From positions 1 to 47,704 of IMG/VR virus record IMGVR_UViG_3300035135_001487: a DNA stretch of 47,704 nucleotides; one strand, given 5' to 3'. This stretch comes from a virus (taxonomy: Duplodnaviria > Caudoviricetes). The notes under the pieces are model-generated. The model was not told the origin of the DNA. It saw only the letters and a program-made list of their open reading frames with translations, and searched no databases. Below are positions 9,618 to 29,333 of this stretch, in pieces. The stretch's first letter is position 1. The number at the start of each line of letters is the position of its first letter. The position numbers and the translations under genes were made by a program.

Positions 9618-10346
9618 CTATTCGTTTCCTTCTGAACCTCTATCTGCTGTTACTCTAGCAGGATTTCCACACTCGTCTAAATCAAAGACGAATTCGTTAG
9701 GGTCATAGTTCCATATATCTCCGAGATTACCTTTTGGGCCGTATTTCATCTCAATGTTAAACGATACACTATACCTATCCTTCTTAGTGTCATTTGGTTC
9801 TACCATATGCATCATTCCACTAGGGAACAATACTAATTGACCTGTTAAAGGTTGAAACTCCCAACTTGTAGGTGTTCTAGGTGAATGAGGAAAGTCTGCA
9901 ACAACTTTTGGTTGTGTATCTATAGCACAAAAATTACCTTCGTCTCCTTCAGCGTGAATATAGAATACACCACTATACCAACATCCATTGTGAAGGTGTG
10001 GTTTATTCCATGCAAGAAAATCGTTAATATTTGCCCAACAATTACCTACCCTCATACTTGTACCCGATGGTAAGCCGTGGAAAGGGAAAACTTCGTCATA
10101 GAATGTTCTCTCAATTCTATTAATAAGTTTTTGAAATATTGGTGATGACTCACACCCATCGTTTGATTGCCATCCTGTATAAGCATTAGAGAGTCTTCTA
10201 CCCACTGGGTCTCTCTTTCTCATTGCATCCATTTCTTCTTTCAACATCCCTACATATTCTTCTGTAAGACCAGCTTCTTCGGGTAGTTCAGGGTTTAGTA
10301 AATCTCTATGAAATACAAATGTTGGGAATAATAATCTAACTGCCAT
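9618..10346 (-). CDS. Putative 2OG-Fe(II) oxygenase, TIGR02466-like
   Basis: LFPT start, GWQS, WANIN, HLH...SGVFY, LVLFPS..HMVEPN..RYSVSFN. Confidence 0.88.
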   Translation of the reverse strand: MAVRLLFPTFVFHRDLLNPELPEEAGLTEEYVGMLKEEMDAMRKRDPVGRRLSNAYTGWQSNDGCESSPIFQKLINRIERTFYDEVFPFHGLPSGTSMRVGNCWANINDFLAWNKPHLHNGCWYSGVFYIHAEGDEGNFCAIDTQPKVVADFPHSPRTPTSWEFQPLTGQLVLFPSGMMHMVEPNDTKKDRYSVSFNIEMKYGPKGNLGDIWNYDPNEFVFDLDECGNPARVTADRGSEGNE

Positions 10347-11208
10347 CTTCTTCTCCTTGGTGGAAAGGACACTCGGGTGGTGGAGAATCTTCTTTGAAGA
10401 ACTTACCTTTTGGTTTCCAATAACCTTTGTTTCTATATGGGCCGAATGTTCTCAATCCTTCCTCATCCATTAATTGTCCCCACTCTTGCATAGACTTTGT
10501 AGTGTCACTTTTTTCAAATTCTGTTGTTCCTTCAGCACGATTATCAGTCCATGATTTATGTGTCTTTACAGTATAAGTTGCATTCCACGTTTCTCTTTGG
10601 AAAGGTATAATCTGTACTAAAGGTGTACCCTTCTTAATAACAAAAGAATGGTCTACCTTGGGATAGAATATAATTTGTGCATTGTCCATCCCCACATTGA
10701 AGTCATCGGTATCGATGATTCCTTGCCATGTTGCAAAGTATTTATTCTGAAAAAGAAAGGGGTCTAGATAAAAACAAGAATAGCCTGGGGGTGTCTTTAT
10801 GTTCCAAGGATTTTTCATCTTAAATGCATCCTTGATTTGGTGACCTCTTCCAAGATATTCAAAAACATCTGCGAATTGAGTTGTAGGATGACTACGTGAA
10901 TGATAGTCCTGACCACTAGGGTCAAAAGCAGCGACCTTTACATCATCACCAGTATCATCTACACTGCTACCGTTTATAACTTCAATATCTCTATTGGATA
11001 CAATAATCCATCCCGACTTTAACCAATCATCCATTGCTGGACAAGCACGAATAGTTTGTTGAGTTTGACCCTTAACTATTTCTGCTACCTTGACACTCTT
11101 CCACCAATCGGGTATAATATCCTTTGCAAGAACTGGTCTAAAGTTCTTTACAGTGTTGTCATCGTATGTGTGAAAGTCTATCGTCGGCATAAAAAAATTC
11201 TTCCTCAT
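10336..11208 (-). CDS. Conserved phage beta-fold protein (DUF6065-like); true start may be the ATG at 11190
   Basis: CPAMDD...GW, NPWNIKTPPGYSC, GIIDTD, KKGTPLVQIIPF; a pattern I recall near phage oxygenase genes. Confidence 0.6.
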   Translation of the reverse strand: MRKNFFMPTIDFHTYDDNTVKNFRPVLAKDIIPDWWKSVKVAEIVKGQTQQTIRACPAMDDWLKSGWIIVSNRDIEVINGSSVDDTGDDVKVAAFDPSGQDYHSRSHPTTQFADVFEYLGRGHQIKDAFKMKNPWNIKTPPGYSCFYLDPFLFQNKYFATWQGIIDTDDFNVGMDNAQIIFYPKVDHSFVIKKGTPLVQIIPFQRETWNATYTVKTHKSWTDNRAEGTTEFEKSDTTKSMQEWGQLMDEEGLRTFGPYRNKGYWKPKGKFFKEDSPPPECPFHQGEEDGS

Positions 11209-11869
11209 CTACTAGTCTAACTTCGTCTCCTCTGAGTACAAGTGACCTTCTATCTATATATCTCGCAGACGGATGAGGGGCGTCTGCTCCGTGTGGTATT
11301 CTACCATCAAACATTATTAATCTGTTTGGTTTAAATTCTACTTCTGCAATTTGGTGATTCTTGATGTGTTCTTCACGTCCATCAATACCTCTTTGATGCT
11401 CATCGTATATTCTTAATGAACCACCCCATTTTGGATTCCAAAATCTATTTGGATAATATAGGAATGATATATTCCACTCATCATCATCGCTACAATCAGA
11501 ATGTGTTGTTCCTTGTAGTCCTTGAGTTTGTGAGTTTAATCCCATGTATTGGAATCTTACCCACTTAAATCCAAACTCCATTTGCACTCTACGATTGAAA
11601 TAATAAGCAAAGTGTAGTTTGTCGGGTGTCATACCATCTTCGGGTCTTTCATTCTCTCTATAGTATGTTGCACCCCAAAACTGGTGATGTGGTAATCCTG
11701 TTGGACTATCACTACTAACTTGATTAGTTTTCGCCCATATACCACCTTGACTTATCTGTTTGTCAAAGTGATGCCAGAGTTCCGTACACAAATAGTCATC
11801 TAAGACATAGATGTCTTTTAGGGGTAACTCTTTTATCTTGAAAGGTCGGTCAATATGTACGACATTCAT
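11159..11869 (-). CDS. 2OG-Fe(II) oxygenase, prolyl-hydroxylase-like superfamily
   Basis: HxD (THSD), LYYPN..W..WGG, FKPNRLIMFDGRIPH, distal Arg. Confidence 0.88.
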   Translation of the reverse strand: MNVVHIDRPFKIKELPLKDIYVLDDYLCTELWHHFDKQISQGGIWAKTNQVSSDSPTGLPHHQFWGATYYRENERPEDGMTPDKLHFAYYFNRRVQMEFGFKWVRFQYMGLNSQTQGLQGTTHSDCSDDDEWNISFLYYPNRFWNPKWGGSLRIYDEHQRGIDGREEHIKNHQIAEVEFKPNRLIMFDGRIPHGADAPHPSARYIDRRSLVLRGDEVRLVDEEEFFYADDRLSHIR

Positions 11870-11871
11870 TC

Positions 11872-12432
11872 CTATCTCTCATGGTCGGGAATCAAGGCAG
11901 GAAGAGGAAATTGGTCGACATATTCTTCTAATGTTTTCAAATGGTCTTCTCTTGTTGCAAATATTTCATTAACAACTTGGTCATAGATAACATACTGAGC
12001 ATCAGCATACTCCATAACTCTTCTAGCATTAGACCTATATGGATGGTTTGAACCCTCTCTACCAGCAAATGTTACTTCAGTTAAGTCATCAAAACCATAC
12101 TTCTCAGTAAACTCTTTGATATTTAACTTAACAGTTTCATTCAAATCTCTAACATATTGATTGTTCAGCGTCACACCTGTAGGTGGTTCTGAGTTTTCAA
12201 TGTATTGTTCGATTCTTTCTTTCTCTGCTGGAGTAAGATTTCTTTTTTCTTGTTCGTCCCATGACTTGCTATGGTCATAGTTTTCAATACAAATTTCAAT
12301 GTCATCATAAACGAGTACATCATACTCCCATCCTAATTCGGGAGCATCCACGTTTTCATAATCCCACTCCAAACCATTTGGTTTACGGATTATTAATTGA
12401 CTATTTTCAGTGTAAATTAAAGCATTCATCAT
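11872..12432 (-). CDS. Hypothetical acidic protein, possibly tail-fibre-assembly-like
   Basis: Clean 186-aa ORF. C-terminal YGFDDL...PYRSNARRVMEYADAQY resembles fibre chaperone helices (weak). Confidence 0.5.
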   Translation of the reverse strand: MMNALIYTENSQLIIRKPNGLEWDYENVDAPELGWEYDVLVYDDIEICIENYDHSKSWDEQEKRNLTPAEKERIEQYIENSEPPTGVTLNNQYVRDLNETVKLNIKEFTEKYGFDDLTEVTFAGREGSNHPYRSNARRVMEYADAQYVIYDQVVNEIFATREDHLKTLEEYVDQFPLPALIPDHER

Positions 12433-12458
12433 AATATTATACCCTATAATTATAGAAA

Positions 12459-14036
12459 TTACAACTGATTTTTAAATCTATTGTATATTTCTAAATTATT
12501 TATATGACTGTAATCCATCCCATCTATCCATGGCCCACCTCTAGTATAATGTACTCCAGCGAAATCCCATTTGACTTCGGGGTCATCATATCCTTCAGTG
12601 AATATATATTTCTCAGGAATAGCAGATATTTTATCAGTCCATTCAAATTGGTGTAACTGTTGACCAGTCCACGTGTTAACAACTTCAGGAGTTAATTTTT
12701 TACAGTCGGGATGACCGTTGTTAAAGAACATCATAGATGACCACAACTTGCATGGGTAATCTATATTAACTTCTCCGTTGAATTTCTTTTCATCATGTTT
12801 GATTTGTGGATACTTGATACATGCCACAGCATCATCCATGTTTAAGTAGTAGAACATAGTTAAAGGATTCTTTTGGAAGATGAAATCATCATCTATAAAC
12901 AAACTGAATCCTTCATAGTTCTCTAAGTAAGGAATCAAGAATCTACTGTAAGTGAACCACGTAGATTGATTCTCGTAAGGTCTAGTGTACTCGGGAATCT
13001 TAGATACATCTAAGAATTTAATCTCGGGTTCAAACTCACTGTAGTTGACTAAGTGTCCACCACCTATTGACCTATGTATACTAGTTTCTAACGATTTTTT
13101 AGAAACCTTTTCAATACCATTGTGTGTTGAATCGTAACCGATGTAAATATTTAAAGGTTTCTTTTTTGCTAATCTTGTAACTTTTTCATTGTGTCTGTAA
13201 ACATATTTTCTAAAGTCAATACTACTCATGTCTGATTGAAACTCTAGTGTTCCATTTGTCCATATTACTGACAAGTTATCATGAGCACCATCTTTCTTGT
13301 TTATGAGTCCTAACCAATATTCCAGTGTATCATCTAGTGTCATTGATTTTGCATGAGGAATCATATCAAAAACATCCCAAATCAATAATTCCATATTTGG
13401 GTCTTCCATCTCCTCAAAGACTCCTGACCTAACTGAGCCTGGATGGATTCTCAATTGATAATTATCATCACCAATCTTAACAACATAACCTTGGATAGGA
13501 TTCCAAAGTCCTTCTTCTCTAATACTTTGTGTTAACCAGTGTGCTTTTGCACTATGATAATACATAGATTGTAGACTTGTTTCAAAGTTGTCATATTTAA
13601 AATCACCTTCTTTAATTTCATCCTTCACTACATCTCTCATAGTGACTAGTTCATCATTTAAGTTTGCAGTTTTAAATTTGGTTGGGACAACTGCTCCAGG
13701 CGCTCCATCGGGGTCGGGTTGACCTGAAGTGTAAACATATGGTAAAAATTTATGATAGGTGTTACATTGAAATTGAAGACCATTGAATGCCATCAATTTT
13801 TTATCACGTCTTAATTGTTCTAAGTCACCCCACTTTATTAATCTAAGTGGAGGCATTTTTTCAAAGAACCATGCAAACTTTTTATATGTCTCTGAATCTT
13901 TTTCGTATTTTTTTAGATTGATTGAACCGACATGGAATTGCTCAAGTGCAAATCTCTCTTGATGAGAAAGAGCTTTTAAATCGGGAAACTCAGATAATTT
14001 GCTTTCTAGTTCTTCTAATGTTTTTACTTTATCCAT
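12459..14036 (-). CDS. GT-A glycosyltransferase (C-terminal) fused to a ParB/Srx-like N-terminal domain
   Basis: IYIGYD, STWFTYSRFLIPYL, DxD (FIDDDFIF), WSSMMFFN, HYTRGGPW. N-terminal SIREEGLWNPI...HPGSVR is a weaker call. Confidence 0.8.
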   Translation of the reverse strand: MDKVKTLEELESKLSEFPDLKALSHQERFALEQFHVGSINLKKYEKDSETYKKFAWFFEKMPPLRLIKWGDLEQLRRDKKLMAFNGLQFQCNTYHKFLPYVYTSGQPDPDGAPGAVVPTKFKTANLNDELVTMRDVVKDEIKEGDFKYDNFETSLQSMYYHSAKAHWLTQSIREEGLWNPIQGYVVKIGDDNYQLRIHPGSVRSGVFEEMEDPNMELLIWDVFDMIPHAKSMTLDDTLEYWLGLINKKDGAHDNLSVIWTNGTLEFQSDMSSIDFRKYVYRHNEKVTRLAKKKPLNIYIGYDSTHNGIEKVSKKSLETSIHRSIGGGHLVNYSEFEPEIKFLDVSKIPEYTRPYENQSTWFTYSRFLIPYLENYEGFSLFIDDDFIFQKNPLTMFYYLNMDDAVACIKYPQIKHDEKKFNGEVNIDYPCKLWSSMMFFNNGHPDCKKLTPEVVNTWTGQQLHQFEWTDKISAIPEKYIFTEGYDDPEVKWDFAGVHYTRGGPWIDGMDYSHINNLEIYNRFKNQL

Positions 14037-14065: not shown

Positions 14066-15328
14066 CTAGGATGAGACTGGTGTTCCTGGCCAGTTTTGGT
14101 TTAGGTCACCATCCCATCTAATTACAGGTGTTCTACCTTGTCTTGCATATGTGACTGGTTGTCTATGTTGATAAGTGAATGGTGTTCTACCTTGTCTTGC
14201 ATAGGTTCCAGGCTGTCTGTTCTGATAGGTAAACGGTGTTTGACCTTGTCTAGCATAGGTTCCAGGCTGTCTGTTTTGATAGGTGAATGGACTTCTACCT
14301 TGTCTCTCATAAGTGACTGGTTGTCTGTGCTGATACGTAAACGGTATCTGATAAGACCTTGGGTCTCTATACGTAAACGGTTGTCTGTTCTGATATGTGA
14401 AAGGAGTTTGTCCTTGTCTTGCATATGTACCAGGCTGTCTGTTTTGGTAAGTAAACGGACTTCTTCCTTGTCTTTCATATGTAACAGGTTGTCTATGTTG
14501 ATACGTGAACGGTGTTTGACCTTGTCTATCATATGTAACAGGTTGTCTATGTTGATACGTGAACGGTGTCTGAGCATTCCTAATATTAGGTTCTTGACCA
14601 TTCACTGGGTTTCTATAGGTGAATGGAGACCTATGGTTATAGGTGAACGGTACTCTATACGACACTGGGTTTCTGTATCCAGCAGGTTGTCTGTTCTGAT
14701 ATGTAAACGGTATCTGATATCCTACAGGGTTTCTGTAAGTTACAGGTTGTCTGTTTTGATACGTAAACGGTGACTGACCTTGTCTATCATATGTGACTGG
14801 TTGTCTATGTTGATAAGTAAACGGTGTTTGAGCGTTTCTTATGTTAGGTTCTTGACCATTCACTGGGTTTCTATAGGTAAACGGTGACCTATGGTTATAA
14901 GTAAACGGAACCCTATACGATACAGGATTTCTATATGTAAACGGTGACCTATGGTTGTATGTGAAAGGTACACGATAACTTACAGGGTTTCTGTAGGTAT
15001 ATGGCGACCTATGGTTATAGGTACTTGGTTGTCTCGCATTCGCAATATAAGGCACCCTATAAGTAAATGGGTTTCTGTATATTAACGGTTGTCTTGCGTT
15101 TGCAATATAAGGCACCCTATAAGTAAATGGGTTTCTGTATATTAACGGTTGTCTTGCGTTTGCTATGTATGGAACACGATAAGATGCCTGATAGGTAAAC
15201 GGATTTCTTCCGTTTGCTATGTATGGAACCCTATACGAAGCTTGATAGGTAAACGGGTTCCTAGCATTCCCGATAGCGGGTTGCTGTGCAGAACGTATGT
15301 TTGGTTCTCTTGCGTTACCTATTGCCAT
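14066..15328 (-). CDS. Arg/Gln/Pro/Tyr repeat protein (420 aa), mirror partner of 15858..17675
   Basis: 398 aa of 6/8/10/12-aa units (RQPVTYARQG, QTPFTYQN, RSPFTYRNPVSY) plus a 22-aa Trp-containing tail. Confidence 0.9.
   Translation of the reverse strand: MAIGNAREPNIRSAQQPAIGNARNPFTYQASYRVPYIANGRNPFTYQASYRVPYIANARQPLIYRNPFTYRVPYIANARQPLIYRNPFTYRVPYIANARQPSTYNHRSPYTYRNPVSYRVPFTYNHRSPFTYRNPVSYRVPFTYNHRSPFTYRNPVNGQEPNIRNAQTPFTYQHRQPVTYDRQGQSPFTYQNRQPVTYRNPVGYQIPFTYQNRQPAGYRNPVSYRVPFTYNHRSPFTYRNPVNGQEPNIRNAQTPFTYQHRQPVTYDRQGQTPFTYQHRQPVTYERQGRSPFTYQNRQPGTYARQGQTPFTYQNRQPFTYRDPRSYQIPFTYQHRQPVTYERQGRSPFTYQNRQPGTYARQGQTPFTYQNRQPGTYARQGRTPFTYQHRQPVTYARQGRTPVIRWDGDLNQNWPGTPVSS
14135..15328 (-). repeat. 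Coding repeat array, 45 units; includes an exact 60-nt tandem duplication at 15042-15163
   Basis: Parsed by hand at Q/R-x-P boundaries; unit lengths sum to 398 aa. Confidence 0.92.
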
Positions 15329-15334
15329 TTCTTA

Positions 15335-15592
15335 TTATGCTCCTGACCCATGATTTTCAAAAGAATATTCCATCGGGTCTACATGCCCATCCATGTTTTG
15401 AAAAATGGATTGCATAAACCCTGAGTTTTCTTCAACAACTCTTTCTAATTCTACTGTATCCACTACACCACCAATTTCGAATACATCTGTACCTGTAGCG
15501 TAATGTGCTGTTCTCTCTTCACCCATATAAGTATATGTGAAGTCTTTGTAAGCGACCTGTATTCCATCTTCTGTTTTATATTGAACTGACAT
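15335..15592 (-). CDS. Small acidic protein (85 aa), paralog of 15592..15858
   Basis: Shared AYKD(F/Y)xYTYMGEERTA, GGVVD, DGHxDP and C-terminal GSGA; TAATG coupling. Confidence 0.85.
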   Translation of the reverse strand: MSVQYKTEDGIQVAYKDFTYTYMGEERTAHYATGTDVFEIGGVVDTVELERVVEENSGFMQSIFQNMDGHVDPMEYSFENHGSGA

Positions 15593-15858
15593 TATGATGC
15601 TCCTGAACCTTCTAATATACCTAAAGCAGGTTCTGATAGAGGGTCAAAATGACCATCAATACTTTCACATAAATGTTTATGACTTACTATTTGTTGGTCT
15701 AATTCTGCTTCTAATCCTTCTGAATCTACAACACCACCAACTGTCCACATATCAGTACGAGCTGCTACCCATGCAGTTCTTTCTTCACCCATGTAAGTGT
15801 AATTGTAATCTTTATAGGCGTGTTCTATCCCTTCTATTAATTTAGTTGAATATGCCAT
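15592..15858 (-). CDS. Small acidic protein (88 aa), paralog of 15335..15592
   Basis: Same shared motifs; start overlaps the stop of the 605-aa gene (TAATG). Confidence 0.85.
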   Translation of the reverse strand: MAYSTKLIEGIEHAYKDYNYTYMGEERTAWVAARTDMWTVGGVVDSEGLEAELDQQIVSHKHLCESIDGHFDPLSEPALGILEGSGAS

Positions 15859-17675
15859 TAGTTATACATCCTTATTCTGAGTAATGTAGACCCAAAACCG
15901 TTGAATCCCAGTGGCGACAATGCCGGATATGGAATAGTCATCGTGCCTGGACTTGTTGTACCAGGCGTTGATACAGTGTAATGAGCAGTGCCTGGCGCAT
16001 TCGGGAAATTATTAGCGTACGGGTAGTTTGGCCCTCTTTGTATACTTATCTTTGTAATTACTGAATAGTCCATACCTGATAAGTTCCATGTACTACCTGA
16101 TGGAGCAGACCACATTAAAATTACCTGTGAAGAGGAAGGTGCAACATATGTATACGGATATGTATTAACACCAGCAGTTACACCAGGCACCGAACCTGTT
16201 GCTGGGGAACCAATCGGACTACCCACAGCAATACCGATACCACTAGAATAACCAAAGTATGGATATGTATAACTTGGATAATGACTCACAAAGAAATATG
16301 CATCATACAAGTGATTATCATACGTGTAAGTGTATGGAGACCTGTAGTTGTACGTAAACGGATTTCTGAATGAATACGTATAAGGTTGTCTCGCATTAGC
16401 AGGATATGTTGCTGGATATCTTGCGTTGTAAGTGAACGGTTGTCTTGCATTAGCAGGATATGTTGCTGGATATCTTGCGTTGTAAGTAAACGGTGACTGA
16501 GCGTTACTTGGTGACTGAGCGTTAGCAGGATATCTTGCGTTGTAAGTAAACGGTGATTGAGCGTTACTTGGTGATTGTGCATTAGCAGGATATCTTGCGT
16601 TATATGTAAACGGTGCTTGTGCGTTTCTAATATTAGGTTCCTGAGCACTTACAGGGTTTCTGTAGGCCGCAGGTTGTTGTGCGTTCCTGATATTAGGTTC
16701 TTGAGCAGAAACTGGGTTTCTGTATCCAGCAGGTTGCTGAGCATTTCTAATATTTGGTTCTTGTGCAGAAACTGGATTCTGATACGTGAACGGTGACCTA
16801 TGTTGATAGGTACTAGGTTGTCTCGCATTTGCAATATAAGGCGATTGTGCGTTAGCAATATATGGATACGGTTGCTGTGCGTTTGCAATGTAAGGACTCT
16901 GAGCGTTTACAGGGTTTCTGTATCCAGCAGGTTGTCTTGCATTCGCAATATATGGTATCTGATATCCTACTGGATTTCTATAAGCAGCAGGTTGTTGTGC
17001 ATTCCTGATATTAGGTTCTTGTGCATTTACAGGGTTTTGATATGTAAATGGAGACCTGTGCTGATACGTACTAGGTTGTCTAGCATTAGCAATATATGGA
17101 CTCTGAGCATTTGCAATATACGGATACGGTTGTTGAGCATTCGCAATGTAAGGCGATTGTGCATTAGCGATATACGGATACGGTTGTTGAGCATCAGCAA
17201 TATACGGGGTCTGCGAATTAGCAATGTACGGATACGGTTGCTGTGCATTGGCGATATATGGTTGCTGTGCAGAAACTGGATTCTGATAAATCGCTGGTTG
17301 TCTTGCTTGTGCAATATATGGCGATTGTGCATTAGCAATGTAAGGGTATGGTTGCTGTGCATTCGCAATATAAGGTGTTTGACTGTTTGCAATGTATGGA
17401 TAAGGTTGTTGAGCATTTGCGATATATGGTGTCTGACTATTTGCAATGTAAGGGTATGCTTGTTGAGCACTTGCAATGTAGGGACTTTGTGCATTCGCAA
17501 TATAAGGATAGGGTTGTTGAACAGATTGTTGACCCGAAGCGTTATTCCACCCCGTAGGTGTTTTAACATAAACTTGGTCTACTGCCTTCCATGTTGTAGA
17601 ACCAGTCTTTACCCATGCACCCTGAGTAGAACTCCATCCCGCTGGGGTTTTTACTTTTTGTGAACCTGTCGCCAT
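15858..17675 (-). CDS. Repeat-stalk protein (605 aa): Trp-rich N-terminal module, 400-aa repeat array, 153-aa C-terminal head
   Basis: N-terminal VKTPAGW/VKTGSTTW/VKTPTGW; units QQPYPYIANA, QSPYIANA, QEPNIRNA; head homologous to that of 25724..27100. Confidence 0.9.
   Translation of the reverse strand: MATGSQKVKTPAGWSSTQGAWVKTGSTTWKAVDQVYVKTPTGWNNASGQQSVQQPYPYIANAQSPYIASAQQAYPYIANSQTPYIANAQQPYPYIANSQTPYIANAQQPYPYIANAQSPYIAQARQPAIYQNPVSAQQPYIANAQQPYPYIANSQTPYIADAQQPYPYIANAQSPYIANAQQPYPYIANAQSPYIANARQPSTYQHRSPFTYQNPVNAQEPNIRNAQQPAAYRNPVGYQIPYIANARQPAGYRNPVNAQSPYIANAQQPYPYIANAQSPYIANARQPSTYQHRSPFTYQNPVSAQEPNIRNAQQPAGYRNPVSAQEPNIRNAQQPAAYRNPVSAQEPNIRNAQAPFTYNARYPANAQSPSNAQSPFTYNARYPANAQSPSNAQSPFTYNARYPATYPANARQPFTYNARYPATYPANARQPYTYSFRNPFTYNYRSPYTYTYDNHLYDAYFFVSHYPSYTYPYFGYSSGIGIAVGSPIGSPATGSVPGVTAGVNTYPYTYVAPSSSQVILMWSAPSGSTWNLSGMDYSVITKISIQRGPNYPYANNFPNAPGTAHYTVSTPGTTSPGTMTIPYPALSPLGFNGFGSTLLRIRMYN
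16201..16280. repeat. 80-bp direct repeat, copy 1 (copy 2 at 26145-26224)
   Basis: 77/80 identical, with a 45-nt perfect run; encodes YPSYTYPYFGYSSGIxIAVGxPIGSPA. Confidence 0.93.
16320..17519 (-). repeat. Coding repeat array, 45 units, 400 aa
   Basis: Hand parse; unit sum equals the coordinate-derived length (aa 53-452). Confidence 0.92.
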
Positions 17676-17704: not shown

Positions 17705-17712
17705 TATTTATT
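17705..17712 (-). promoter_or_regulatory. Late promoter variant AATAAATA upstream of the 605-aa gene
   Basis: One mismatch to consensus, overlapping the upstream stop codon. Confidence 0.5.
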
Positions 17713-20008
17713 AAGAGTATAAAATCCATAAATCACCAACTGAACCATCACCAGAGCCTGGAGATGAAGTTGATTGATATATGTTTCTCACATATCCACC
17801 TGAGTTGTTTGCGTAACTTGTTGTTATTGACCCAAGTGTTGCGTTAGAACCACTCTCATATTTAGAATTTAATGCAGTCTGTAAACCATCTATGTTTGAT
17901 ATCACGTGATTGTGTGAATCATCAGCAACTGTTGCTGAGATAGATATGTTTGCAGAACCGTCAAATGATGCAGAACCTGAAAGGTCTCCACCTAATGAGA
18001 TTGTTCTCGCAGTCGTTAACTGAGCAGCACTTGAAGCAGTACTTGCGTTACCAGTTAATGAACCTTCGAATGAAGATGCTTTTACGTTATATGAACCGAA
18101 AGTCCACTCATCTTCTGATTCGTCCCATGTCAATGAAACGTTAGATGATGTTCCTCTTTCTACTTCGATACCAGCATCTTGTGAAGGTGTTCCAGTTACA
18201 TCGTTGTTAAGTGTAATGATATTATCTGAAACGTTAAGTGTTGCAGTGTTAACAGTGGTTGTAGTTCCGTTAACTGTTAAGTCGCCTGATAGCGTTAAAT
18301 CTCCAAACTGAACATTACTTGTAGTACCAACTGCCTGACCGATACTTACTTGACCTGAACTGATTGAAACACCAGTTCCTGCTGAGAAATGAGCACGTGT
18401 TTCTGAAGCACTTGGGCCAGTGTAAGTAATTACACCAGTACTTGAATTATATCCAAGTGAACCATCTCCACCTGAATCTGTTACTGAAATTTTTCCTCTT
18501 ACTTGTGCATCTGTAATACCTGAGTATGTAATTACACCAGTTGTAGAGTTATATGAAAGTGTACCGTCTCCAGCACTATCTGTTACTGAGATAGCACCTC
18601 TTGCATCTGCATCTGTATATTTTGTTACAGAGAAAGCACCAGTTCCACTGTTGTATGATAAGTCACCACCAGCAGAGAATAAACCTCTGATATCTGAATC
18701 TGATAAACCAGCAAGTGTTAATGTACCAGCAGCGTCATCATATGTTGATGTGATGTTTGTTCCACCGACTACTAAACCATTAACAATATCTTCGATTTCT
18801 TCTTCTGTTTTACCTGAAGATGAGATTGTAAGTGTACCATTTGCATCATCATAAGACAATGACATGTTAGTACCTGCTTGTAACAATGCATTGACTCTAT
18901 CATCTACTCTTTCGTTTGTAAAGAAGAGATTTCCATTTTCTGATAAATCACCAGTGTCAAGTGTTACAGCACCACCCAATGCAGTTGCATTTGAGTTGAT
19001 TGTGATTGAACTGTTTGCAAGTTTAGCATTTGAGATAGAACCCGCTAACATAGCGTCTGTAATACCTAATGCTTTTACTTGTAGTGTGTCTGAACTTGTT
19101 TCGATTGAACTATCATCAACATTAACTGCAAGTGAAACTGTACCTGAAGTTCCACCACCTGACAAACCGTCACCAGCAGTTACACCTTCGATATCACCAG
19201 CATCGTTTGTGAATGAGATTACACCAGTTGTGGAGTTATAGGACAAGTCTCCACTTACTGAAATCGCACCTCTTGCTCTTGCTGTTGTGTGATAGAGGTT
19301 GGTTGAACCTTCAGTGATATCATCTGTATCACCTGAAAGTTCTGATAATGCATCTTTACTTGCAACTTGCGAATCAACATATGCTTTTATAGATTGTTGA
19401 GAAGCAGCATGAGTTGCAGAGTTTGAAGACATGTTGTCTTCATCTTTAAGGTCTAAATTAAGAGTAACTGCACCACTTGAACCGCCTCCTGAAAGACCTG
19501 TTCCTGCTGTAACACTTTCTATATCACCAGCATCGTTTGTAAAACTAATTACACCAGTTGAAGAGTCGTAACTTAAATCACCACCTGCTGATATTGCACC
19601 TCTAGCTCTTGCGTTTGTAAAATATTGATTCGAGGAACCTTCAGATAAGTCATCTGTATCGAAAGCAGACATGTTAACTGCAATGTCATCTGCGTTTACA
19701 GTAATACCTGTACCAGCACCAACATTTAGTGTTGCATCACCTGAAGTTGCAGTACCCGTTAAACCAGCACCAGCGTTAACTCCAGTGATATCACCGACAT
19801 TACCTGTAATTGTTAGTTGGTTGTTTGCATCATCATATGATAATGAGATACCTGAACCTGCTTGTAAGAGGTTCGCAACTCTATCGTCTACACTTTCATT
19901 AAGTGCAGTTGCAGAAATGGAACCTACATATGTTCCGTCTGACTGAATGACCTCTGTTCCTTGAACAGAAAGACCATTCTTAATATTAAAATTCTTTTCT
20001 CCTGCCAT
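17711..20008 (-). CDS. Tail fibre-like protein (765 aa)
   Basis: G/S/T/D-rich repeats (DTDDLSEGSSNxYFTxxRARGAIS, GDLSYNSTTGVI, AGDIESVTAG), GDLTVNGTTTTVNT, C-terminal GDLWILYS. Confidence 0.85.
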   Translation of the reverse strand: MAGEKNFNIKNGLSVQGTEVIQSDGTYVGSISATALNESVDDRVANLLQAGSGISLSYDDANNQLTITGNVGDITGVNAGAGLTGTATSGDATLNVGAGTGITVNADDIAVNMSAFDTDDLSEGSSNQYFTNARARGAISAGGDLSYDSSTGVISFTNDAGDIESVTAGTGLSGGGSSGAVTLNLDLKDEDNMSSNSATHAASQQSIKAYVDSQVASKDALSELSGDTDDITEGSTNLYHTTARARGAISVSGDLSYNSTTGVISFTNDAGDIEGVTAGDGLSGGGTSGTVSLAVNVDDSSIETSSDTLQVKALGITDAMLAGSISNAKLANSSITINSNATALGGAVTLDTGDLSENGNLFFTNERVDDRVNALLQAGTNMSLSYDDANGTLTISSSGKTEEEIEDIVNGLVVGGTNITSTYDDAAGTLTLAGLSDSDIRGLFSAGGDLSYNSGTGAFSVTKYTDADARGAISVTDSAGDGTLSYNSTTGVITYSGITDAQVRGKISVTDSGGDGSLGYNSSTGVITYTGPSASETRAHFSAGTGVSISSGQVSIGQAVGTTSNVQFGDLTLSGDLTVNGTTTTVNTATLNVSDNIITLNNDVTGTPSQDAGIEVERGTSSNVSLTWDESEDEWTFGSYNVKASSFEGSLTGNASTASSAAQLTTARTISLGGDLSGSASFDGSANISISATVADDSHNHVISNIDGLQTALNSKYESGSNATLGSITTSYANNSGGYVRNIYQSTSSPGSGDGSVGDLWILYS
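19596..19660. repeat. 65-bp direct repeat (second copy at 20099-20163)
   Basis: 62/65 identical; encodes DTDDLSEGSSNQYFTNARARGA in both the 765-aa and 86-aa genes. Confidence 0.9.
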
Positions 20009-24172: not shown

Positions 24173-24418
24173 CTAAAATGTTCCGCCGTCTAATACAGTT
24201 GTGGTTGTCCACTTGTCTGTAGTAGCATCGTATGAAAGAAGTCCGTCATCTGTTTCAGTTGCATCAACATCTGCAAGTTCATTAATAGATTTTGCTGCCA
24301 AATTTACATCTGCAGACGAATTACCAATTGCAACTTGTTTAGCACGAAGGTTTCCAGTTCCCTGAATTCTTCCACCAATTGTTGCAACTCTACTAAGTGT
24401 ACCTTTAATATTACTCAT
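24173..24418 (-). CDS. Small virion-type protein (81 aa)
   Basis: INELADVD...DGLLSYD...KW fibre motif; C-terminal LDGGTF. Confidence 0.75.
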   Translation of the reverse strand: MSNIKGTLSRVATIGGRIQGTGNLRAKQVAIGNSSADVNLAAKSINELADVDATETDDGLLSYDATTDKWTTTTVLDGGTF

Positions 24419-24420
24419 AA

Positions 24421-24756
24421 TTAACTCCTTGTTACGCCTGGGGTTACAATTGCTTGACCTTCTACAACTCTAGTTGTCACACCACCCGAACTTGTAATGT
24501 TTAGGTCGTAAACATATCTACCAGCATCTAAACCAGTAGTTACAGTGTCACTAAGTGTTAGTGTAACTTGACCAGTTGCTTCTGCAATAGATGTACCGAA
24601 ACTAGCACTTGTACTCGATGAAGAATATGTTTTTCTTATCTGAGCAGCCGCACTATATCCTGATAAGTTCAAGATATCTCCTGAACTATCTGTTACGTCT
24701 ACGGTGATACTGAAATCAGCACCTTGGTCAATGAATAAGTTTGCGATAATAGCCAT
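24421..24756 (-). CDS. Conserved T4-like beta-sandwich virion protein (111 aa, BppU_N-like)
   Basis: NLFIDQGADF, AQIRK, GRYVYD, RVVEG...VTPGVT; CATAAATA at 24763-24770. Confidence 0.75.
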   Translation of the reverse strand: MAIIANLFIDQGADFSITVDVTDSSGDILNLSGYSAAAQIRKTYSSSSTSASFGTSIAEATGQVTLTLSDTVTTGLDAGRYVYDLNITSSGGVTTRVVEGQAIVTPGVTRS

Positions 24757-24782: not shown

Positions 24783-25724
24783 TTATCTATTGAACTGAGC
24801 AGTAGGAACTGACTGGTGTACTTTCTCTACTGTACCATCATCGTTGGTGTATACTTCGTCCACTTTTCTAATTGTTCCACTATCATTAACATATACACCT
24901 TTAACTTTTGCAATTGGGCCGATAGGTCTTGTAGTTGCATACGGTTGTTGATAACTGTAAGGTTGTCCAAACGAGTAAGGAACCTGATAAGGATTTTGGT
25001 ATATCGCTGGTTGTCTTGCTTGTGCAATATAAGGTGTTCTTCTATTAGCAGGATTTCTGTAAGTAAAAGGTTGTCTGTTCTGATACGTAAACGGTGTTCT
25101 ACCTGTAACACTAGTTGTATATGGTGCTTGTCTTTGATATGTTGTAGGTGTTTGACCTTGTCTCGCATACGTAGTAGGTTGTCTGTTCTGATATGTAAAC
25201 GGTGTTTGACTGTTTGCAATGTACGGATACGGTTGCTGAGCATTAGCAATGTATGGATACGGTTGCTGAGTTTGTGCAATTGCTGGTTGTCTTGCACCAG
25301 CAATATACGGATAAGGTTGTTGTGCAACTACAGGATATCTAGCAGGTTGTCTTGCATTTGCGATATAAGGATAGGGTTGTTGCGCTTGATATGTAAACGG
25401 TGTCTGACCTTGTGTTTCATATGTTGAAGGAACCTGAGCAGTATATTGATACGCTATTTGATAAGTTCCATTCGATGTAGTTGGGTGTCTATATGAAACT
25501 TGATATGTTCTAGGTGACTGATAGATGTAAGTTGTCTGAACCTGATTTATGTAAGGTGCTGGGGTTCGTCCCTGAATATTTCTAGGTTGTTGTACTGTAA
25601 CTTGATAGATTTGTTGGCCAGGAACCTGATATTCATATGGTTGCTGAGTTTGTGCAATCTGTTGATAGGTATATGGTTCTTGTCCAGCTGCAACTACCTG
25701 ATTTTGTCTTTGTCCTATAGCCAT
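24783..25724 (-). CDS. Gln/Pro/Tyr repeat protein (313 aa), mirror partner of 25724..27100
   Basis: Starts MAIG like the 420-aa protein; 264-aa array plus C-terminal VKGVYVNDSGTIRKVDEVYTNDDGT module; TAATG coupling. Confidence 0.9.
   Translation of the reverse strand: MAIGQRQNQVVAAGQEPYTYQQIAQTQQPYEYQVPGQQIYQVTVQQPRNIQGRTPAPYINQVQTTYIYQSPRTYQVSYRHPTTSNGTYQIAYQYTAQVPSTYETQGQTPFTYQAQQPYPYIANARQPARYPVVAQQPYPYIAGARQPAIAQTQQPYPYIANAQQPYPYIANSQTPFTYQNRQPTTYARQGQTPTTYQRQAPYTTSVTGRTPFTYQNRQPFTYRNPANRRTPYIAQARQPAIYQNPYQVPYSFGQPYSYQQPYATTRPIGPIAKVKGVYVNDSGTIRKVDEVYTNDDGTVEKVHQSVPTAQFNR
24933..25724 (-). repeat. Coding repeat array, 31 units, 264 aa
   Basis: Hand parse; the N-terminal third is degenerate. 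Confidence 0.8.
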
Positions 25725-27100
25725 TAGTCGTAAAACCTCATTCTAATAAATGCACCAAATGATGGAAGACCCAACGGATTCATAGTACTAGCAGGAATAG
25801 TCAAACTTGATGAATATTGTGGCGACACTGTAAATCCAGTATAAGTTATCGTAGTAAACGAAGTATTAGCAGCTGTATAAGCTGGGCCAGGACTTGTCAT
25901 AGTTCCCCTTCCTATTTCAATTTTAGTTACAGTAGAAAATAACTGTTTGCCAGGATAATTATCAATTGGAGTAGGCCCAGTAGGCGTTGAGAATCCTGAT
26001 ACTTGGAAGAACCAATTCGGGTTTGATGGCCCTGCTTGATAAAGGAACAATATCGATATACCCGGCCCGCCTGGGTTCGAAAAAGGCAAATAGGCATACG
26101 GAAATGTACTGGTATTAATTGGAGAAGCAATTGGATGTCCCGCTGCTGGTGAACCAATCGGATTACCCACAGCAATACTGATACCACTAGAATAACCAAA
26201 GTATGGATATGTATAACTTGGATATGGCCCAACGAAGAAATATGCTGTTCCCAGTAATCTATCATAAGTATATGTTGAAGGTTGAGGCGTTCTATAAGGA
26301 ATAGGTTCTTGACCTGTTACAGGTGTTCGATAAGGTACTTGAGTTCTACCTATCAATGGAACATCAATTGGGCCTCTAACTGCATTCTGATACGCAACTT
26401 GATATGTAAATGGATATGAAACCTGATAACTCGCATTCACTTCTGAAGGTGTAGTTCCTATAGCAGGGTGTCTATAAGAAGCAGGTTGTTGTGCAATATT
26501 TTGTGTATTTACAATATACGGTGCTGGTTGTCTAGCAGTATGTTGATACGTTGTTTGTTTGTTTGCAGTGTACGGATACGGTTGCTGAGCATTAGCAGGA
26601 TAAGGACTTCTTCCTTGTCTTGCATATGTAAATGGATTCTGATACGACTCTTGTCTAGTATAAGGCAATTGACCTTGTCTTTCATATGTGAAAGGAATCT
26701 GATGCTGATATGTCGCAGGCGTTCTACCTTGTCTTGAATAAGTAAAAGGTGTTCGTCCTTGTCTTGCATAGGTCGCTGGTTGTCTTGCTTGTGCGATATA
26801 AGGCGATTGTGCGTCAGCAATGTACGGATACGGATTTTGTGCATTTGCAATATAAGGATAATTTGCGTTTGCGATATACGGATATGGTTGCTGTGCGTTT
26901 GCTATGTAAGGACTCTGAGCGTTTACGGGATTTTGGTAAATACTCGGTTGTTGATTGTTGTAAGTAAATGGAGTCTGAGAACTAGCAATCGCCTGTCTTG
27001 GTTGCTGAGCGTTTACAGGTGTTCTACCGTTTGCAGGAGCTGTACCTTGGTAGGGTTGCTGGAACGTAGTTCCAATATTTACATAGATTTCATCAGCCAT
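25724..27100 (-). CDS. Repeat-stalk protein (458 aa): 266-aa array plus 179-aa head
   Basis: Same unit vocabulary as the 605/420 pair; head begins TYTYD...AYFFV..YPSYTYPYFGYSSGI. Confidence 0.9.
   Translation of the reverse strand: MADEIYVNIGTTFQQPYQGTAPANGRTPVNAQQPRQAIASSQTPFTYNNQQPSIYQNPVNAQSPYIANAQQPYPYIANANYPYIANAQNPYPYIADAQSPYIAQARQPATYARQGRTPFTYSRQGRTPATYQHQIPFTYERQGQLPYTRQESYQNPFTYARQGRSPYPANAQQPYPYTANKQTTYQHTARQPAPYIVNTQNIAQQPASYRHPAIGTTPSEVNASYQVSYPFTYQVAYQNAVRGPIDVPLIGRTQVPYRTPVTGQEPIPYRTPQPSTYTYDRLLGTAYFFVGPYPSYTYPYFGYSSGISIAVGNPIGSPAAGHPIASPINTSTFPYAYLPFSNPGGPGISILFLYQAGPSNPNWFFQVSGFSTPTGPTPIDNYPGKQLFSTVTKIEIGRGTMTSPGPAYTAANTSFTTITYTGFTVSPQYSSSLTIPASTMNPLGLPSFGAFIRMRFYD
26145..26224. 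repeat. 80-bp direct repeat, copy 2 (copy 1 at 16201-16280)
   Basis: 77/80 identical. Confidence 0.93.
26264..27061 (-). repeat. Coding repeat array, 31 units, 266 aa
   Basis: Hand parse; unit sum equals aa 14-279. Confidence 0.8.
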
Positions 27101-27101
27101 A

Positions 27102-29333
27102 TCATACTACTAACCATAAATGACCAGTAGATGTACTACCTACACTCGAAGGTGCAGATGATGTTATTTCGTAGTCTAGTTCTACATTGTTAGTACTGGT
27201 GTTCACGGTTACTCCATTTTGTGCGAGAACTTCTGCTGTTATTTCACCATCCAATGCAGTATCAGAACCACCATCGGGATTATCAGCATAAGTTAATTTA
27301 ATACCTTTATAGGATTCTGTATCTCCATTACTACCTAACTTAAAGATATCAGCGACCCTATCGTCTGTAAAGTATTTATTGTTACCCTCAGTAGTTGAAT
27401 CTGTTGTTGTACTTTGGTTAACAGGAACCCAGTTAGAACCATCCCATCCTAATACTTTACCAATTGCATTTCCTGTTACATCAACGTTACCGATGTCATC
27501 TAAGTCAGCAGCACCGATTCTTAAGTCTGCTCTTGCATCTGCTCTTGCATTTGTAAAGAATAAGTTAGACCCCTCGGTGATATTACCCGAGTCTCCACCT
27601 AACTCACTTAAATGGTCTTTACTTGCAACTTGTGAATCAACGTATGCTTTTACTGATTGTTGTGTTGGTACTAAACTAGCACTATTACTAGCCATGTTGT
27701 CTTCATCTACGAATGCAGTGATTGATATACTACCATCTGATAAAGTTTCAAACGATGTAGTACCTGTTAAACTTGCATTAGCGAGAGGTGCTTTCAGATT
27801 AAGTTGAGATTGGATGTTTGATGTTACACCATCCAAGTAATCGAATTCTGTTGATGTTACACCAGTTGCTCTCAAGTCTTTTGCATAGTTAAGGTCTGCT
27901 ACGACACCAGTGAATCCATCGAGTTTGTTAAGTTCTGCAGTGGTTGATGTAATACCATCTAATGTGTCAAACTCTGATGCAGTTACACCTGTATCGTATA
28001 ATGATTTTGCATAATTAAGTTCTGTTGCAGAACCAGTATATCCATCTAGTTTGTTTATTTCAGCAGCAGTAGAAGTAACTGTAGTTCCGTTAATAGACAA
28101 TGTATCAACTTCTGCTGTACCGTCAATATAGAGATTTCTCCATTGTTTGCCATCACTACCTAGGTCATAAGTATTTGATGCGTTAGGTAAGATGTGTGAA
28201 TGTATATCAGCACCAAAAGAAACACTATCAGTATCTTGGTTACCTAGTGTTAGGTTACCATTAATTGTTGCGTTACCGTGAACTGTTAGGTTAGTAGAAA
28301 TATCTACACTACCATTTAAGTCTAGGTCACCATCGATTGTTGTTCCGTTTAATGTGGTTGCACCATCAACGTTTAGATGGTCAAGTTCTGTAGTTCCATC
28401 GACATCTAGGTTACCGTGTACAGTTGCATTTGTTGATACATCGACACTACCGTTTAGGTCTAGGTCACCATCTATGGTTGTACCATTCAGTGTGGTTGCA
28501 GAATCTACGTTTAGAGTTCCATCGATATCAACATTACCGTTAGCATTGATGTGACCATCTGAAGTAATCGATACTCCTGTTGAACCGAATCCACCACCAA
28601 CGTCTAGGTTACCAACGTTGAAGTCACTACTAAATGTACCAGTGACACCACCTGTAATATTACCTTGATTGATTGAAAGTGTATTATCTGTAATAGTTGG
28701 TGCTGTCAATGTCTGACCAGTGTCTAACTTGACGTTACCTTGTGAGAATGTATCACCTGCTAATTCGATATCAAAGTTACTGACATCTGTTAATACTGTT
28801 GTTCTATCTGTACCACTACCATTAATAATAACACCGTTATCGTTTGTGTTGTAAATTGTTTGAGCAGCAGTTTGTGTGAAGAAACCTGATGCGGCTCCAG
28901 TGTCAACTACACCTAAGTACGAACCAGTGTATGCATATACAGTAACTACATCACTGTTGTTTAATGCTGATGAGAATGTAATAGAACTATAAGTTTGTGG
29001 ACTTACAACTCCGAATCCACCAATAGAGAAATCTGTATCTCTGATTTGGTGAACACCATTCACATATACTTGGAATCTTTTTGTTCTGTAACTTAAGAGA
29101 TTACCGAAATTATCGTTACCTGAAAATACAGTGTTACCACTAGCACCATCTGAACCATCAAAAACGAATTCTTGGAAGAAGAATGATTTATCTTCTAGAC
29201 TATTAACTGCATCGACAAGAGTTTCTTGATTCTCTGTTCTTAAACCGCTAATGTCACCGACATCGTTTGCTAGGTCGTTGTAACGATTTCTAAATTGTTC
29301 TATAGTTGAAAACTGGTCTACGGTCTTAGGCAT
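27102..29333 (-). CDS. Tail fibre-like protein (743 aa)
   Basis: N-terminal TIEQFRNRYNDL; repeats TTLNGTTIDGDLDLNGSVD and STxAELNKLDG; DEDNMAS..QQSVKAYVDSQV; C-terminal GHLWLVV. Confidence 0.85.
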   Translation of the reverse strand: MPKTVDQFSTIEQFRNRYNDLANDVGDISGLRTENQETLVDAVNSLEDKSFFFQEFVFDGSDGASGNTVFSGNDNFGNLLSYRTKRFQVYVNGVHQIRDTDFSIGGFGVVSPQTYSSITFSSALNNSDVVTVYAYTGSYLGVVDTGAASGFFTQTAAQTIYNTNDNGVIINGSGTDRTTVLTDVSNFDIELAGDTFSQGNVKLDTGQTLTAPTITDNTLSINQGNITGGVTGTFSSDFNVGNLDVGGGFGSTGVSITSDGHINANGNVDIDGTLNVDSATTLNGTTIDGDLDLNGSVDVSTNATVHGNLDVDGTTELDHLNVDGATTLNGTTIDGDLDLNGSVDISTNLTVHGNATINGNLTLGNQDTDSVSFGADIHSHILPNASNTYDLGSDGKQWRNLYIDGTAEVDTLSINGTTVTSTAAEINKLDGYTGSATELNYAKSLYDTGVTASEFDTLDGITSTTAELNKLDGFTGVVADLNYAKDLRATGVTSTEFDYLDGVTSNIQSQLNLKAPLANASLTGTTSFETLSDGSISITAFVDEDNMASNSASLVPTQQSVKAYVDSQVASKDHLSELGGDSGNITEGSNLFFTNARADARADLRIGAADLDDIGNVDVTGNAIGKVLGWDGSNWVPVNQSTTTDSTTEGNNKYFTDDRVADIFKLGSNGDTESYKGIKLTYADNPDGGSDTALDGEITAEVLAQNGVTVNTSTNNVELDYEITSSAPSSVGSTSTGHLWLVV

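Follow-up and report, generated by a model that had tools for sequence, protein, structure and literature searches.

Mirror-ordered repeat arrays in two same-strand phage genes: a candidate antiparallel two-chain stalk for a T4-like tail fiber

Introduction

Two genes on one strand of a T4-like phage record encode long, proline-punctuated repeat arrays in which the order of the unit lengths in one chain is the reverse of that in the other, which raises the question of what such a pair of proteins is for. The genes, here called A and B, lie in the virus record IMGVR_UViG_3300035135_001487 (Duplodnaviria; Caudoviricetes), the whole stretch of which (positions 1 to 47,704) is referred to below as the window. 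A previous sequence-only reading of this DNA had proposed that the two chains zip together antiparallel in a single register. In the present study, this interpretation was supported at the level of sequence, and we consider it likely that A and B form an in-register antiparallel beta stalk that is capped onto an upstream fiber protein and carries a swappable tip.

Unit order in the two chains

Both open reading frames (ORFs) were confirmed as described, and the two chains comprise the following parts.

15858-17675, minus strand: chain A (ORF, 605 aa), consisting of an N-terminal cap, a repeat array and a tip domain.
17520-17675, minus strand: A aa 1-52, a conserved cap with three K-T-..-W repeats, near-invariant across 26 aligned homologs.
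16320-17519, minus strand: A aa 53-452, 52 even-length Q/R-x-P units, the putative first strand of the stalk, with 61/61 prolines on one parity.
15861-16319, minus strand: A aa 453-605, a variable tip, likely all-beta (low-confidence model) and a candidate receptor-binding head, paralogous to the tip of a second pair described below.
14066-15328, minus strand: chain B (ORF and alignment, 420 aa), consisting of a mirror array (aa 1-398) and a conserved C-terminal RWD...WP segment (aa 399-420).

When the arrays were cut at Q/R-x-P and at one additional QQAY unit, with the 12-mers kept as 6+6, A yielded 52 units over 400 aa. All 51 full units of B, read from the C- to the N-terminus, equaled those of A in length (51/51), and the N-terminal MAIGNA of B was left over as a unit of 6 aa. 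The reversed series that had been noticed earlier with a coarser cut thus also holds with a finer one; every unit is of even length, as had been stated, and the unit pairings that had been named are present, the matched units differing in sequence. In parallel order, only 17 unit lengths matched versus the 51 in mirrored order. A comparison of proline positions gave a single antiparallel peak of 51 Pro-Pro coincidences, followed by 31 in the next register and 32 in the best parallel one. All 52 prolines of B lie on one parity (52/52), and 51 of them face a proline of A.

Shuffling the unit order, the check suggested in the sequence-only reading, gave no more than 34 length matches in 200,000 shuffles. 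Since such shuffles disregard runs like 10,8,10,8, natural non-cognate partners are a better control, and these reached at best 0.50, against 0.98 for the cognate pair.

The symmetry had been assigned to the protein rather than to the DNA, and this view was borne out: the two arrays share no reverse-complement, reversed or complement 12-mers and 87 same-strand 12-mers, which indicates that the symmetry is at the protein level and that both genes use one stock of units. The number of same-strand 16-mers shared by A and B was 24. The arrays are rich in Ala, Pro, Gln, Tyr, Arg and Asn (approximately 13-15% Pro and 12-13% Tyr) with few acidic residues, and aromatic residues are concentrated on one face. 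Among the matches listed, contig pieces from four public sequencing runs (at most four studies) match the window with 0-1 differences each; no public contig piece covers the arrays whole, and one of the four runs is possibly the window's own source.

Residue pairing and proline spacing

Across the paired span of 26 representative pairs from related loci, 2413 of the 2414 prolines share one parity (A, 1283/1283; B, 1130/1131). In an antiparallel two-stranded ribbon, prolines placed at non-hydrogen-bonded positions would give a single parity of this kind. Mutual information between facing residues, and the anticorrelation of residue size on the non-proline face, were strongest at a shift of -2 from the Pro-Pro alignment. 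These signals favor a register two residues away from Pro-Pro, in which Q/R-x-P would face P-x-Q/R, and this refines the pairing suggested in the earlier reading. The common pairs at this shift are P-Q, P-R, N-T, A-Y, A-F, R-Y, I-Q, V-Y, H-N, E-S and G-Y, and the code also includes G-F.

A pair-code score was trained on 23 pairs of the A/B type (type 1), with the window excluded. The score of A against B was 1160, and the next register reached 101. Control combinations, including chains C and D of the second pair, gave 18 for A-A, 115 for B-B, -60 for A-D and 20 for C-B, while A against the B chains of 58 other pairs scored no more than 247.

Conservation across related loci

A search with B retrieved 71 viral loci, 60 of which carry both array genes and 11 only one, the latter mostly at contig ends. 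Together with a second set of loci, these provided 59 distinct type-1 pairs including that of the window, with B chains of 206-562 aa and 40 distinct spacing patterns. In 57 of the 59, no less than 70% of the B prolines lie opposite a proline of A when the chains are set in the register that the two conserved end motifs predict (median 96%); the test additionally demanded agreement with the best register of the pair code, a circular requirement where the 23 training pairs are concerned, while the proline fraction is free of this circularity. The sequence-only reading had named co-variation of array length and order across homologous loci as a test set in advance, and such co-variation was found (57/59 pairs, 40 patterns).

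Insertions and deletions follow the mirror. Between the window and locus L028, the blocks along A are 18, 28 (net), 38 and 60 aa, and those along B are 60, 38, 28 and 18 aa. Four other comparisons showed a single block of equal size in both chains (16, 18, 16 and 44 aa), and in three more distant ones the placement of gaps was too ambiguous to read. The partner in L014, when read from a GTG start, matched at 56/58. A length correlation that is independent of the array ends gave r 0.82, a value degraded by failure of the array-end rule in L027, L038 and L039 and by the mis-called start of L014, and the anchored register test was preferred for this reason.

In loci L063-L070, the gene order is the reverse, B preceding A, and the mirror is preserved. 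Two loci were found in GTDB genomes. A B-like gene was found in L258 (NYWG01000101.1), a contig assigned to a Verrucomicrobiales metagenome-assembled genome; the contig may be phage DNA that was binned in error, or it may hint at the host.

A second pair and its fused relatives

The window contains a second, type-2 pair, preceded by its own fiber-like gene.

27102-29333, minus strand: a 743-aa fiber-like protein ending in GHLWLVV, located after a 2229-aa baseplate gene; the putative carrier of the C/D stalk, judged from sequence.
25724-27100, minus strand: chain C (458 aa), an array and a paralogous tip, in mirror with D.
24783-25724, minus strand: chain D (313 aa), which mirrors C and has the larger part of the cap C-terminally.

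C and D mirror each other at one register (code score 262; next register, -62), and the division of the cap is reversed in type 2, most of it being located at the C-terminus of D. In 30 of 31 distinct split type-2 relatives, the end offset that gave the best code score was almost constant (-32, -33 or -39). A further 42 distinct type-2 relatives are single ORFs at the same locus position, with a C-like start and a D-like end. In 41 of these 42 fusions, the best stem links the N-terminal to the C-terminal half at offsets of -19 to -42; 16 score at least 160 with stems of 88-175 pairs, and the clearest cases close a central head of approximately 130-160 aa. The fusions thus join both strands in a single molecule, running in the direction expected. 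A fusion of type 1 was not encountered; this counts for little, since protein searches for longer forms of B or for the fusion center came back empty despite the presence of such proteins in the loci, and are hence insensitive.

The central 130-160 aa of the fused heads (L097, 3938-5404; L099; L101; L201) are Gln/Pro-rich with two or three turn-like motifs. Branched stems within these heads were considered and dropped, the inner stems being weak. An AlphaFold2 model of the fused L097 protein (12 alignment rows) had a pLDDT of 30.8, with the C-terminal cap strands alone formed, and is uninformative. When A 1-144 and B 313-420 were modeled together (26-row alignment each), the score was 0.00 and the controls did not fold either; this result counts neither for nor against the pairing.

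Genomic context and the ends of the candidate stalk

The window covers the structural operon of a T4-like phage, with all genes on the minus strand. In our own reading of the sequences, the gene order appears to be baseplate genes, the 2229-aa wedge-like gene, fiber genes, and then neck, terminase, sheath, tube and portal genes; the names were read from the sequences, and that of the neck gene alone was confirmed by a search, its product being approximately 52% identical to its counterparts in HTVC008M, Melnitz and Mosig. The A/B pair sits in the interval ahead of this neck gene, gp13, and is accompanied by the following features.

17711-20008, minus strand: a 765-aa fiber-like protein ending in GDLWILYS, the putative carrier of the A/B stalk (PHROG structural and long-tail-fiber matches).
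17705-17710, minus strand: TAAATA, a T4-late-promoter-like site 35 nt before A (motif match).
15592-15858, minus strand: an 88-aa small protein, likely a partner or chaperone of the beta tip domain (position in relatives).
15335-15592, minus strand: an 85-aa paralog of the 88-aa protein (45% identical).

At the near end of the candidate stalk, residues W14, W21, W29 and W43 of the A cap are invariant in 26 aligned rows, and the RWD...WP tail of B falls beside this cap in the mirror layout. The gene upstream of the pair ends in G[DH][LM]W in 60/60 loci. From the analogy with S16 gp38, we infer that the A cap serves as an adaptor onto this upstream fiber. TAAATA, which we take to be the core of a late promoter, is located no more than 70 nt ahead of the first array gene in 45/60 loci. 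Among PDB sequences, the 765-aa protein had one 45-residue match to Dec of phage L, and its remaining matches were calmodulin, which was treated as spurious. The 743-aa protein showed a weak, bactofilin-like beta-helix match below the cut-off.

At the far end, the N-terminus of B meets the end of the A array, and beyond this point A ends in one of three ways: with a domain of the beta type, with a Hint domain or with a short tail rich in Gly. Between A and B, a small gene resembling those of the 88- and 85-aa proteins is present in 14/14 of the other type-1 pairs with a beta tip and in 0/44 of those without, in a classification of 58 other pairs in which L038 and L039 were reassigned to Hint and L014 was set by hand. 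The two copies in the window accompany two diverged tips, those of A and C, which are 39% identical in one comparison. In a comparison across genomes, the type-1 tip and the type-2 tip match each other best in 7/7 genomes (87-95% in five, 48% in the window and 44% in one), as would be expected if both fibers track one receptor.

A model of the A tip predicted by AlphaFold2 was all-beta with low confidence (pLDDT 55.6) and found no Foldseek match at E<=0.001 in BFVD and no usable match in the ESM Atlas. With regard to MATH/TRAF-like and other known beta-sandwich folds, the best VIA match of this low-confidence model reached Z 5.1 (rmsd 4.0, 112 aligned residues), and no fold was assigned to the tip. 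Sequence searches with the tip found none in viral contigs and four credible relatives of six matches among representatives.

Hint-type Pfam matches were found in the tips of relatives, above the cut-off in L047 and L227, with CF...HN in the sequence; the domain is absent from the window's own A. In L024, L033, L040, L043, L047 and others, Hint follows a Gly run and ends in His-Asn and a short tail, mostly without Cys/Ser/Thr. Without this domain, the end would be much like those of L010, L019 and L063, which have short Gly-rich tips, and the N-terminus of B is predicted to lie beside the junction.

Chains A and B matched no Pfam family at the cut-off and no PHROG, and these searches gave no similarity to gp37 or to a gp10/gp12-like collar domain. 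A GT8-like glycosyltransferase gene directly follows the pair in 58/58 type-1 loci, and in the window (9618-14036, minus strand) it is itself followed by a 186-aa gene and 2OG-Fe(II) oxygenase genes. Their products might hydroxylate and glycosylate the Pro-rich stalk; modification of the host lipopolysaccharide was proposed instead in a previous study (PMC7029224). A 111-aa protein (24421-24756, minus strand) resembles LtfC, the collar protein of the T5 L-shaped fiber, and its gene and an 81-aa gene (24173-24418, minus strand) start a run of small fiber-like genes leading to the 765-aa carrier, several of which end in a DGGT(F/I) motif.

Discussion

In the arrangement that we consider likely, A and B, which are mirror complements residue by residue over approximately 400 positions, would pair antiparallel in one register to form a two-stranded beta stalk that extends the tail fiber. 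An extended strand rises by 3.3-3.4 Å per residue, and 400 residues correspond to approximately 130-135 nm; the stalk would be at most this long, and twist would shorten it. Prolines at non-hydrogen-bonded positions would leave the shared strand pairing intact while blocking the addition of further strands at the edges, small residues would face aromatic ones, and the irregular order of 6-, 8- and 10-residue units would permit one full register and the cognate partner alone. The N-terminal Trp repeats of A and the RWD...WP segment of B, located at the same end, would cap the GDLW end of the presumably trimeric upstream fiber protein. At the far end, the variable tip domain of A, aided by the small proteins, would make the first contact with the host surface. 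We infer binding, beta geometry, stoichiometry, the 130-nm length, attachment and the receptor role from the sequences; with regard to stoichiometry, one duplex per fiber is probable by analogy with S16 gp38, in which a trimer is capped by three tryptophans. A broader view, which we hold with less assurance but still favor slightly, is that the arrays follow a protein duplex code resembling base pairing, in which a single two-stranded beta ribbon of 60-180 nm at the tips of phage fibers is built from one fold-back chain or from two and evolves through matched insertions.

Several observations weigh against this reading. Four of the 59 type-1 pairs (L071, L133, L068 and L009) have an uncompensated block in A, the four blocks measuring 44, 18, 20 and 20 aa; three of these four have a matched relative that is 99-100% identical, so the unmatched blocks could reflect slips during the assembly of tandem repeats, or bulges that are tolerated. 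Since the loci are related, the counts do not represent independent events. Among records of cultured phages, none carries the pair, GenBank phages having given weak low-complexity matches or none. Many type-2 pairs fit the code weakly (the margin in L180 is 7), and 26 of the 42 fusions score no more than 130. Shifts 0 and -2 both carry signal, so the exact register is not fixed. Complementary stretches also occur within single chains (148 in A, 166 in B and up to 290 in L010), which implies that local self-hairpins compete; the internal stems of the split chains are local and do not run end to end.

Among the alternatives, the one that survives best, although we regard it as unlikely, retains the same-register pairs but bundles three (or two) duplexes into a multi-stranded needle like that of T4 gp37, at a much greater length. 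The presumed carrier is fiber-like and tail fibers are typically trimers, as outlined in the main text of a fiber atlas (PMC12143355); moreover, a lone two-stranded ribbon of 130 nm would be thin and floppy, and the aromatic residues crowding one face could pack against other duplexes. However, all four chains (A, B, C and D) lack an HxH metal motif, the prolines present in each unit would be expected to block edge-to-edge sheets, and the three Trp repeats in one A chain suit a single chain that caps a trimer, for which the portion of the S16 gp38 report considered here provides a precedent (PMC6851490).

Pairing in register but in a non-beta form, such as intertwined extended or polyproline-II chains with Tyr-Pro contacts, is improbable in our estimate. 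The Pro and Tyr contents of the arrays are compatible with it, and Tyr-PxxP interlocking holds the stalk of antigen I/II together according to the relevant part of one report (PMC7732690), but the period here is strictly two and not three, as reflected in the even unit lengths and the parity of 2413/2414 prolines, and a helical heptad region that could act as the partner is absent from both chains.

We find it harder still to credit that B is a transient folding template or ruler for A, or that the duplex is a whisker or decoy of the neck or head instead of a fiber extension. The location of the pair before gp13 would suit such a role, and tail hairs of approximately 119 nm, the genes for which are given as unknown in the section concerned, have been described in the jumbo phage CBB (PMC5259590). 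The 42 type-2 proteins in which both chains are fused speak for a permanent pair, however, while a fiber-like gene with the same C-terminal motif is always located upstream (60/60), and the tips are variable and common to both fibers of a genome. The notion that the mirror is a DNA-level by-product of inverted duplication, gene conversion or mis-assembly without any protein pairing, for which the 24 shared 16-mers and the lack of a public contig across the arrays might be invoked, can practically be dismissed because there is no reverse, complement or reverse-complement similarity (on which ground DNA-level inversion was rejected), matched units differ in sequence, and the rule is kept over 40 spacing patterns with compensated indels.

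If the antiparallel two-chain stalk is correct, a non-trimeric design with its register written in the sequence would be added to the known trimeric fibers, and a role would be given to genes that lack annotation in the host-recognition island of T4-like phages abundant in aquatic settings. On the broader view of a duplex code, it would represent a natural, programmable protein zipper in which the order of units sets both the length and the partner. Dozens of natural cognate and non-cognate pairs provide ready controls for the pairing of long protein strands through a complementarity code, and the unit code is potentially useful for length-programmable protein rods and orthogonal heterodimers. 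An evolutionary puzzle is also raised, in that a unit gained in one gene needs a mirror unit in the other.

The mirror order of the two arrays is a real, conserved and unusual feature. A full-text literature search, which covered few subscription papers and no supplements, showed no description of mirror-coded fiber genes among the entries listed. The fiber atlas modeled 16 classes, approximately 24% of annotated fibers, as homotrimers, and the words 'heterodimer' and 'hairpin' are absent from its main text (PMC12143355). A profile of A 1-144 (the cap and first units) matched no phage chain or solved structure in the PDB.

Considering known systems, the arrays resemble the epiplastins (articulins and alveolins) in their low-complexity, Pro-containing repeats, which in those proteins are predicted to be long beta strands forming filaments (PMC6212826). 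Epiplastins are, however, Val/Ile- and charge-rich proteins of eukaryotic membrane skeletons, for which the sections of that source concerned with the repeats mention no mirror partner or register code, and the phage arrays have no Val/Ile-rich acid-base-dyad domains with VPV motifs. In the stalk of the streptococcal antigen I/II (SpaP), as described in the part of the report devoted to it, two distant repeat regions pair over more than 50 nm and lift a variable domain, and the termini meet at the base (PMC7732690). The layout of A and B, as far as the sequence goes, similarly places a variable domain at the end of a stalk with the termini meeting at its base; in antigen I/II, a single chain pairs an Ala-rich heptad region with a PxxP region, whereas both strands here use one alphabet of units with a period of two and an irregular, mirror-coded order.

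Closer to phage fibers, S16 gp38 is reported, in the structural portion of its description, to sit as a single chain on the end of the trimeric gp37 via three tryptophans 120 degrees apart and to carry the variable part that governs host range (PMC6851490). Chain A, as with a gp38-type adhesin, follows a distal fiber gene, here the fiber-like gene with the G[DH][LM]W end in 60/60 loci. The S16/T2-type gp38 has a helical-bundle cap followed by a short beta-helix and a polyglycine sandwich, and A instead has a K-T-..-W repeat cap to which a second chain would contribute the remainder, ahead of an array of 400 residues with no family match; A contains no G-x-x-G-x-x-G run, short Gly tails being found only in some relatives.

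The nearest parallel in the tail fiber itself is the T4 gp37 needle, each chain of which runs out and back. In the passages on its domains D10-D11, the needle is an elongated antiparallel beta element at the fiber end that bears the receptor-binding tip (PMC7291167, PMC6957217), and the stalk proposed here likewise would be an elongated strand element carrying a tip. The gp37 needle is the product of one gene, a six-stranded homotrimer with seven His-bound irons over approximately 230 residues, whereas the present arrays, without any HxH motif, are encoded by two genes or one fusion and extend over approximately 400 paired positions in proline-punctuated units.

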